The notes below the pieces were generated by a model. It was not told the DNA's origin, did no database searches, and saw only the letters and a list, made by a program, of their open reading frames with translations. The translations under genes and the position numbers were made by a program. DNA of 7,936 nucleotides from a virus (Duplodnaviria > Heunggongvirae > Uroviricota > Caudoviricetes), in the IMG/VR virus record IMGVR_UViG_2695420871_000002, positions 1 to 7,936 of that record, one strand, 5' to 3'. Of the stretch, positions 2,551-3,237 are shown in pieces. Each line of letters starts with the position of its first letter. Position 1 is the first letter of the stretch.

Positions 2551-3237
2551 TCACTCCTTCTCTTCTTTACCGTAGTGGAGTTGACCAATTTTGATAAGAG
2601 GGCGTCCCTGAGATTTGCGGTGTAGATTGGTATCGCGCAGAGAATACACACAGCCACAATATTCCTGCTGATAGAATTTTTCGCGCTTGCTGATTTCAAT
2701 CATACGGGACGAGCCGCCCTGCTTGCGCCAGTTATAATCCCAGTACACCATGCCCGGATAATGCGCGACGGCTCGCCGCCCACAGTCGTTAACCTGCTGC
2801 ATATTTTTCCAGCGTGAAATGCCCAGTGAACTGCTGATCACACTGAAACCATTTTCAGCGGCGTACAGCGCTGTCCGCTCAAAACGCATGTCAAAACACA
2901 TGGTGCAACGGATCCCTCGTTCGGGCTCCCATTCCATTCCTTTGGCTCGTTCAAACCAGTTGTCTGTGTCGTAATCAGCATCAATAAACGGCACGCCGTG
3001 TTGTTCAGCAAAGCGAATATTCTCATCCTTACGAATTAAATACTCTTTCTGAGGATGAATGTTCGGGTTGTAGAAAAAGATGGTGTAGTCGATTCCCGAG
3101 GCCTGAAGCGCCTCCATCACCTCACCGGAACATGGAGCACAGCAAGAGTGCAGTAGTAGTTTGTTTGCCCCGTTTGGGAGCTCCAATTTGGGCCGTTTGA
3201 AATCAGCAACTGTCATAAATATGTTTATTGGGGTCAT
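2551..3237 (-). CDS. queH: DUF208 / epoxyqueuosine reductase QueH-like protein, 228 aa
   Basis: ORF 2551..3237. Carries the motifs I associate with Que[13 protein letters not shown] near the N-terminus, FFYNPNIHP, a central C-x2-C ([10 protein letters not shown]) and C-terminal [10 protein letters not shown]. No obvious SD at either candidate ATG (3237 or 3216). Confidence 0.7.

Follow-up and report, generated by a model that had tools for sequence, protein, structure and literature searches.

The stretch of viral DNA analysed here, 7,936 nucleotides in length and called the window throughout, carries a queH gene between a phage replication module and a hok/sok toxin–antitoxin locus. The ORF list and profile searches placed all genes from about 150 to 6500 on the minus strand, and by its gene content the window is the early-right region of a Rac-like lambdoid prophage. 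The genes are listed below in order of transcription.

6271–6498, minus strand: Cro-like gene, first in transcription order
5866–6171, minus strand: CII/YdaT-like gene, second in transcription order
5120–5788, minus strand: O-like initiator, third in transcription order
4236–4982, minus strand: DnaC/YdaV-like loader, upstream of queH
3799–4221, minus strand: DUF977/YdaW/Ren-like gene, the end of the replication module (Pfam DUF977, E = 1e-33; phrog_142)
3385–3798, minus strand: Zn-ribbon ORF (phrog_1621, of unknown function in PHROGs), optional, between DUF977 and queH
2551–3216 (longest ORF to 3237), minus strand: queH, between the Zn-ribbon ORF and hok/sok
2168–2529 (including a promoter-like site), minus strand: hok/sok type I toxin–antitoxin (Pfam HOK_GEF, E = 1e-22; Rfam sok)
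Beyond hok/sok, minus strand: a 95-aa ORF, a NinB-like DUF1367 gene, YbcO and a Q-like DUF1133 gene, in this transcription order

This order agrees with the position given to the gene in an earlier, preliminary description of the window, with the DnaC-like gene, DUF977 and the Zn-ribbon ORF lying upstream and hok/sok downstream. The hok/sok locus is complete: the Hok ORF is contained within a 70-aa mok-like ORF, and Rfam sok matches 2318–2493 with 117 bits. A promoter scan found a promoter-like site, TTGATT-18-TAGAAT, at 2529–2500, directly past the queH stop codon. The Zn-ribbon ORF was read here as 137 aa with a weak match to a TFIIB-type zinc ribbon, and the version called by PGAP is shorter (118 aa). 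The O-like initiator contains 12 consecutive Glu codons at about 5330–5370, where the opposite strand reads as a poly-Ser ORF.

A prophage of E. coli FDAARGOS_944, integrated beside ybhA/modC, matches the window at 99.4% identity and has a 100% identical queH. Downstream of its Q-like gene lies a group of four tRNA genes, for Gly, Thr, Arg and Ile (17102–17412 of its record), none of which belongs to the queuosine family with its GUN anticodon.

Domain, cysteine motifs and fold of the prophage QueH

The minus-strand ORF at 2551–3237 encodes 228 aa. When it was searched against Pfam, the QueH/DUF208 profile PF02677 matched residues 27–201 over profile positions 1–174 of 175 (E = 1.9e-65; 220.6 bits against a gathering cut-off of 23.5), and this full-length match confirmed the family that had been assigned in the preliminary description. 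The ORF was also matched by the sequence of the T. maritima QueH crystal structure 7lc5 (E = 5e-22), and RefSeq names the gene epoxyqueuosine reductase QueH. NCBIfam profiles gave no QueH match for the ORF, suggesting that PGAP presumably names QueH by another route.

Loss of the Cys ligands had been named beforehand as fatal to this assignment. We found that all seven family-invariant cysteines are kept (Cys32, 33, 36, 111, 114, 194 and 196 in the 228-aa numbering); across 41 QueH sequences of 35–86% identity their columns do not vary, and the same seven columns are conserved in most of 86 cluster representatives. They fall into three motifs.

3130–3144, minus strand: CCxPC motif with Cys32, Cys33 and Cys36, invariant in 41 diverse QueH sequences
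2896–2907, minus strand: CxxC motif with Cys111 and Cys114, following the invariant Arg110 and aligning with Cys87 and Cys90 of 7lc5
2650–2658, minus strand: CGC motif with Cys194 and Cys196, aligning with Cys169 and Cys171 of 7lc5

Besides the cysteines, the alignments contained further invariant columns (N, R, E, R, R, K, Q and G). According to PDB entry titles and papers citing the founding work, the cysteines of CCxP(C/D), CxxC and CGC bind a [4Fe-4S] cluster and an adjacent iron. Cys36 aligns with Asp13 of T. maritima QueH, the residue mutated in PDB 9dco. When the 86 cluster representatives were aligned together with the window protein and T. maritima QueH, this column held Cys in 71 of the 77 ungapped sequences, so CCxPC is the family norm and the Asp of Thermotoga is the exception. 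Judged from the alignment, the active site of the prophage QueH is not identical to that of T. maritima QueH, the sole QueH to have been studied structurally.

The fold was examined with an AlphaFold (AF2) model built from 41 homologues, which reached a pLDDT of 95.5 and a pTM of 0.91. In a Foldseek search of the PDB the five best matches were all T. maritima QueH (rmsd 1.2–2.0 Å; target-normalised TM 0.90–0.92), and the model superposed on 7lc5 with an rmsd of 1.2 Å and a target-normalised TM of 0.92. The next matches, about ten orders of magnitude weaker, were other adenine-nucleotide alpha-hydrolase-like enzymes (TtuA, TilS). The window protein and T. maritima QueH (PDB 7lc5, 7lc7 and 9deu) therefore have the same full-length domain, fold and CC/CxxC/CGC cysteines at roughly 30% identity, whereas the window protein has CCAPC instead of CCAPD and ~20 extra residues at each end, and its gene is prophage-borne, not chromosomal. 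By domain coverage and motif content the prophage ORF is a genuine full-length QueH, and the enzyme is very probably catalytically active.

The true start of queH is probably the second ATG, at 3216, which gives a protein of 221 aa. This start is indicated by three comparisons: PGAP uses 3216 in the 100% identical record, the N-termini of the chromosomal homologues begin there, and the seven codons upstream of it vary non-synonymously between copies. PHROGs places the protein in phrog_3217, labelled as unknown function, with a profile that starts at residue 34 of the 221-aa protein and omits CCxPC. Phage gene calls thus seem to be N-terminally truncated and to lack this motif.

A transferable cassette in a variable cargo slot

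The limits of the mobile unit were defined by comparing queH loci from phages and bacterial chromosomes, and the elements at and near its upstream end were mapped.

~2545–3287, minus strand: transferable queH cassette of ~740 bp, consisting of the CDS, ~70 nt upstream and <10 nt downstream (homology breakpoints)
3251–3259, minus strand: TGCTACACT, candidate extended −10 element 35 nt upstream of the ATG (conserved motif TGCTACA(C/A)T)
3299–3314, minus strand: GC hairpin with a GAAA loop, CCGCCC-GAAA-GGGCGG on the transcribed strand (sequence reading; present in the MFE fold)

HannyBb, an isolated temperate phage with queH at 95.6% identity, has 95% nucleotide identity over exactly the cassette, with flanks that are 80–82% identical or unrelated. 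Homology to E. albertii ends at 3287, homology to Scandinavium covers 2547–3264, and on the downstream side the copies diverge no more than ~8 nt past the stop codon. According to the preliminary description the gene is bracketed, as an inserted unit would be, by a GNRA hairpin upstream and the hok promoter downstream. The hairpin at 3299–3314 does exist and the promoter-like site does directly follow the queH stop, but the hairpin lies outside the cassette. It belongs to the segment of the Zn-ribbon ORF; the commonest arrangement lacks it, and so do those of ST131, O157, E. albertii and HannyBb. We considered the hairpin as a cassette boundary and rejected it, the homology breakpoints at ~2545 and ~3287 leaving 3299–3314 outside. 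It was likewise rejected as a terminator: there is no T-run on either strand, the scan made no call, and the intergenic fold has a z of only −1.8.

Upstream of the phage and chromosomal copies, variants of the TGCTACA(C/A)T motif occur at the same place, ranging from TGCTACAAT to CGCTACAAT and TGCTACCCT. The chromosomal copies with the motif (TGCTACAAT, TGCTACACT or a near variant) are those of Enterobacter, Kluyvera, Scandinavium and Symbiopectobacterium, whose upstream regions cannot otherwise be aligned. Within the window the TGCTACACT-type motif has one match against 0.07 expected. A scan with a generic promoter consensus made no call upstream of queH, where neither a −35 element nor a Shine–Dalgarno sequence is evident. 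Conservation of this −10-like motif before both phage and chromosomal copies suggests that it may be the extended −10 element of a promoter of its own that queH brought along. The scan found no terminator-like site between the genes upstream and queH, nor from the queH stop at 2551 to the promoter-like site of hok. Since no terminator separates queH from the upstream genes or from hok, read-through from the early operon would also be expected.

The gene is widespread. With a threshold of at least 90% nucleotide identity, queH was found in 995 of 5426 complete E. coli genomes (about 18%), all of which also carry queG. At least 1000 contigs, some of them from Shigella, encode the exact protein, and queH is present on 188 IMG/VR viral contigs. 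When 50,697 phage records were searched by tblastn we obtained 25 matches. Among complete genomes of named phages, HannyBb alone had a close relative; the other matches were to unannotated faecal contigs or to large atypical records that are only putatively phages.

Gene order was compared in the best 80 viral (IMG/VR) queH loci of the 188 contigs. DUF977 is the constant upstream neighbour, being present in every viral locus that reaches that far, and the Zn-ribbon ORF was found in 11 of the 80. Next after queH came hok/sok in 65 of the 80 and a type II restriction–modification (R-M) pair in 14, and the modules further downstream differ (DUF968/RusA, or NinB-like/YbcO). In O157:H7 strain Z910 the first ~100 nt of hok/sok are kept and the remainder is replaced by an NgoMIV-type R-M pair. 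Across the loci compared with 3238–4235 of the window, the interval from DUF977 to hokD (or DUF968) is a hypervariable cargo slot of Rac-like lambdoid prophages, in which related prophages hold other cargo: DUF7167 with small ORFs, DUF551, ORF6N, DUF5677, SAM methyltransferases or a death-on-curing (Doc) family toxin. These alternatives support the earlier view of queH as variable prophage cargo. Like lambdoid morons and other accessory genes of the nin region, such as hok/sok and R-M cassettes, the queH cassette is variably present at a fixed position with discrete junctions and is dispensable for phage functions. Unlike them, it carries a tRNA-modification enzyme of housekeeping ancestry, no terminator of its own was found by the scan, and its promoter is a predicted one.

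Chromosomal relatives and selection on queH

The nearest relatives outside Escherichia are the queH genes of Enterobacter, Kluyvera and Scandinavium, with 89–92% amino-acid and up to 85% nucleotide identity; the two contexts examined among these three genera, those of Enterobacter and Scandinavium, are non-phage surroundings. Amino-acid identity is 80–86% for Erwinia, Providencia, Proteus and Photorhabdus. The Providencia gene (84% identical) lies in a housekeeping region adjoining tmcA and purC, and the Photorhabdus gene (80%) in a non-phage, housekeeping or metabolic neighbourhood. The Enterobacterales chromosomal genes have the same length and motifs as the window copy, with TGCTACA(C/A)T upstream in those of Enterobacteriaceae. 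They differ from it in setting, being non-phage where examined, whereas a lambdoid prophage houses the window copy, in the stretch from DUF977 to hok/sok. Among the E. coli phage copies compared, the junctions are the same, which points to a single capture for all of these copies.

The E. coli prophage protein is 75–80% identical to those of Sphingomonas, Stenotrophomonas or Pseudomonas, an unusual degree of conservation across Proteobacteria. A few matches at 78–86%, in records titled Bacillus subtilis SK7B5, Ca. Avacidaminococcus and Kingella/Simonsiella MAGs, point to contamination or horizontal transfer. Among the representatives 54–60% identical to the window QueH we found natural QueA–QueH fusions. 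These constitute a Rosetta-stone tie of the CCxPC clade to the enzyme that makes epoxyqueuosine, and thus to epoxyqueuosine in tRNA. One of the fusions, of 1398 aa, joins FolD, a pterin-4a-carbinolamine dehydratase, QueA and QueH.

We then considered how selection has acted on the gene. Pairwise dN/dS among prophage copies was 0.025–0.054, with dS up to 0.29, and 79 of the copies in the best 80 IMG/VR loci are intact. The same 80 viral loci contain 17 nucleotide alleles but only 5 protein alleles; polymorphic codons are synonymous-only in 30 cases, compared with 3 in which the amino acid changes, and third-codon positions account for 31 of the 35 polymorphic sites. As these comparisons indicate, queH is under strong purifying selection. 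Taken together with the housekeeping relatives and the gene fusions, this suggests that the protein is selected as an enzyme of the queuosine pathway.

A second enzyme beside the host QueG

The preliminary description had stated that E. coli uses the unrelated QueG for this step, and queG was indeed present in all 5426 complete E. coli genomes. Its presence throughout indicates that E. coli runs the step from epoxyqueuosine (oQ) to queuosine (Q), and that a prophage queH is always a second enzyme for the same step. E. coli does not synthesise B12 de novo. The two enzymes have the same predicted reaction, oQ-tRNA to Q-tRNA, in the same cells; QueG differs in its unrelated fold and family, in its B12 dependence (PMC4646009) and in being core (5426/5426), whereas queH is accessory (995/5426). 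Two papers describe the final step of E. coli Q synthesis as cobamide-dependent and queG mutants as accumulating oQ (PMC4646009, citing Frey 1988 and Miles 2011; PMC11841063). QueH requires only iron (PMC9508795, PMC13443448). Staphylococcus aureus keeps both QueG and QueH under different expression patterns, interpreted as an adaptation to cofactor availability (PMC13443448).

We consider it probable that the prophage gene encodes a working QueH that acts as a B12-independent backup of QueG, by lysogenic conversion. In this model, Escherichia lambdoid phages would have taken the ~740 bp cassette from an Enterobacteriaceae chromosome, along with a short stretch upstream of the gene in which its own extended −10 promoter probably lies, and the cassette would now occupy the accessory slot between the replication module and hok/sok. 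It would be expressed in the lysogen, or during lytic growth through read-through from the early rightward operon. Its product would be a cobalamin-independent [4Fe-4S]/iron enzyme that reduces oQ34 to Q34 in tRNA-Asp, -Asn, -His and -Tyr, and would complete Q when B12 is scarce or not taken up. Completion by QueH would be useful without B12 because QueG needs cobalamin, which E. coli must import. The phage would convert the lysogen by supplying an isozyme that does without the cofactor, a case comparable to that of MetE and MetH. The redundancy suggested in the preliminary description thus holds in that QueH duplicates the step of the host QueG, but 'redundant' is better read as a cofactor-independent backup. 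The fitness benefit of Q over oQ, and hence of the prophage QueH, is uncertain. Deletion of queG left the growth of an E. coli metE mutant unchanged with either cobamide tested (PMC11841063).

The enzymatic function would be the same if queH served the lytic cycle only. It would then be expressed solely on the delayed-early rightward transcript and would push tRNAs with GUN anticodons to Q during late-protein synthesis, with no gain for the lysogen. Consistent with this, queH runs in the same direction as the replication and nin-like genes with no terminator-like site intervening, and every arrangement compared has the slot within the early operon. However, the occurrence of the −10-like motif before chromosomal copies as well points to independent transcription, the carriers are mostly resident prophages, where a lysogen trait could plausibly be selected, and the prophage tRNA genes (Ile, Arg, Thr, Gly) are not Q substrates. 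We therefore regard a purely lytic role as unlikely.

A part in defence or anti-defence, for instance by altering the Q34 status of tRNAs targeted by anticodon nucleases such as colicin E5, would fit the company that the gene keeps, the slot also holding hok/sok, the NgoMIV-type R-M pair, SAM methyltransferases, the Doc family toxin and the ORF6N protein among other cargo. It would also fit the specificity of colicin E5, which cleaves exactly the Q-family tRNAs. PADLOC gave no match, however, and the sequence is nearly the same as that of housekeeping QueH with no extra domain, which makes such a role quite improbable.

Slightly less credit still can be given to the idea that queH is an inert passenger, acquired by illegitimate recombination and carried along with hok/sok. 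The host counterpart makes the gene apparently redundant, and one capture with the same junctions accounts for the E. coli phage copies seen here. This neutral reading is contradicted by a dN/dS of 0.03–0.05, by the 79 intact copies of 80 and by the excess of third-position changes, and the cassette has been kept across different flanking modules.

The preliminary description had raised recruitment for 7-deazaguanine-related modification or anti-defence, and neither proposal fared well in the searches, given the PADLOC result and the QueA–QueH fusions. No epoxy-Q DNA base has, as far as we know, been described. Although phages do use preQ0-derived bases in their DNA (PMC6884629, PMC10516641), we consider a QueH recruited to modify phage DNA extremely improbable: dpdA/TGT-like, queC, queD, queE and folE genes were found neither in the window nor in the prophage with the identical gene, as annotated from integrase to baseplate genes; the fusions tie the clade to tRNA; and QueA forms oQ on preQ1 already in tRNA (PMC10639084), so that a DNA substrate for QueH is not expected.

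A literature search on QueH, DUF208 and epoxyqueuosine reductase, with or without phage terms, returned no paper on a prophage QueH, and we know of no such tRNA-modification isozyme gene that has been studied as prophage cargo. The family, the fold, the reaction and the RefSeq gene name are already known, so that any novelty would lie in the biological setting rather than in the mechanism. Under the proposed backup of QueG, the prophage enzyme might go as far as to free about one in five E. coli strains from the need for cobalamin in making queuosine, as a true lysogenic-conversion factor, a possibility that we put forward only tentatively. If this were true, Q34 tRNAs would stay fully mature in lysogens under B12 scarcity or after loss of the B12 receptor BtuB, itself a route to phage and colicin resistance. 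Measurable effects would follow on translation, on gut fitness and possibly on the queuine supply to the host. The Q34 status of E. coli is usually treated as set by its core genome and B12 supply. A mobile B12-independent reductase in ~18% of complete genomes would mean that strains differ in whether their tRNAs stay at oQ without cobalamin. It would be a clear case of a tRNA-modification isozyme being spread by a temperate phage, and would bear on studies of Q-dependent translation, on gut cobamide ecology and on the provision of queuine to animal hosts.
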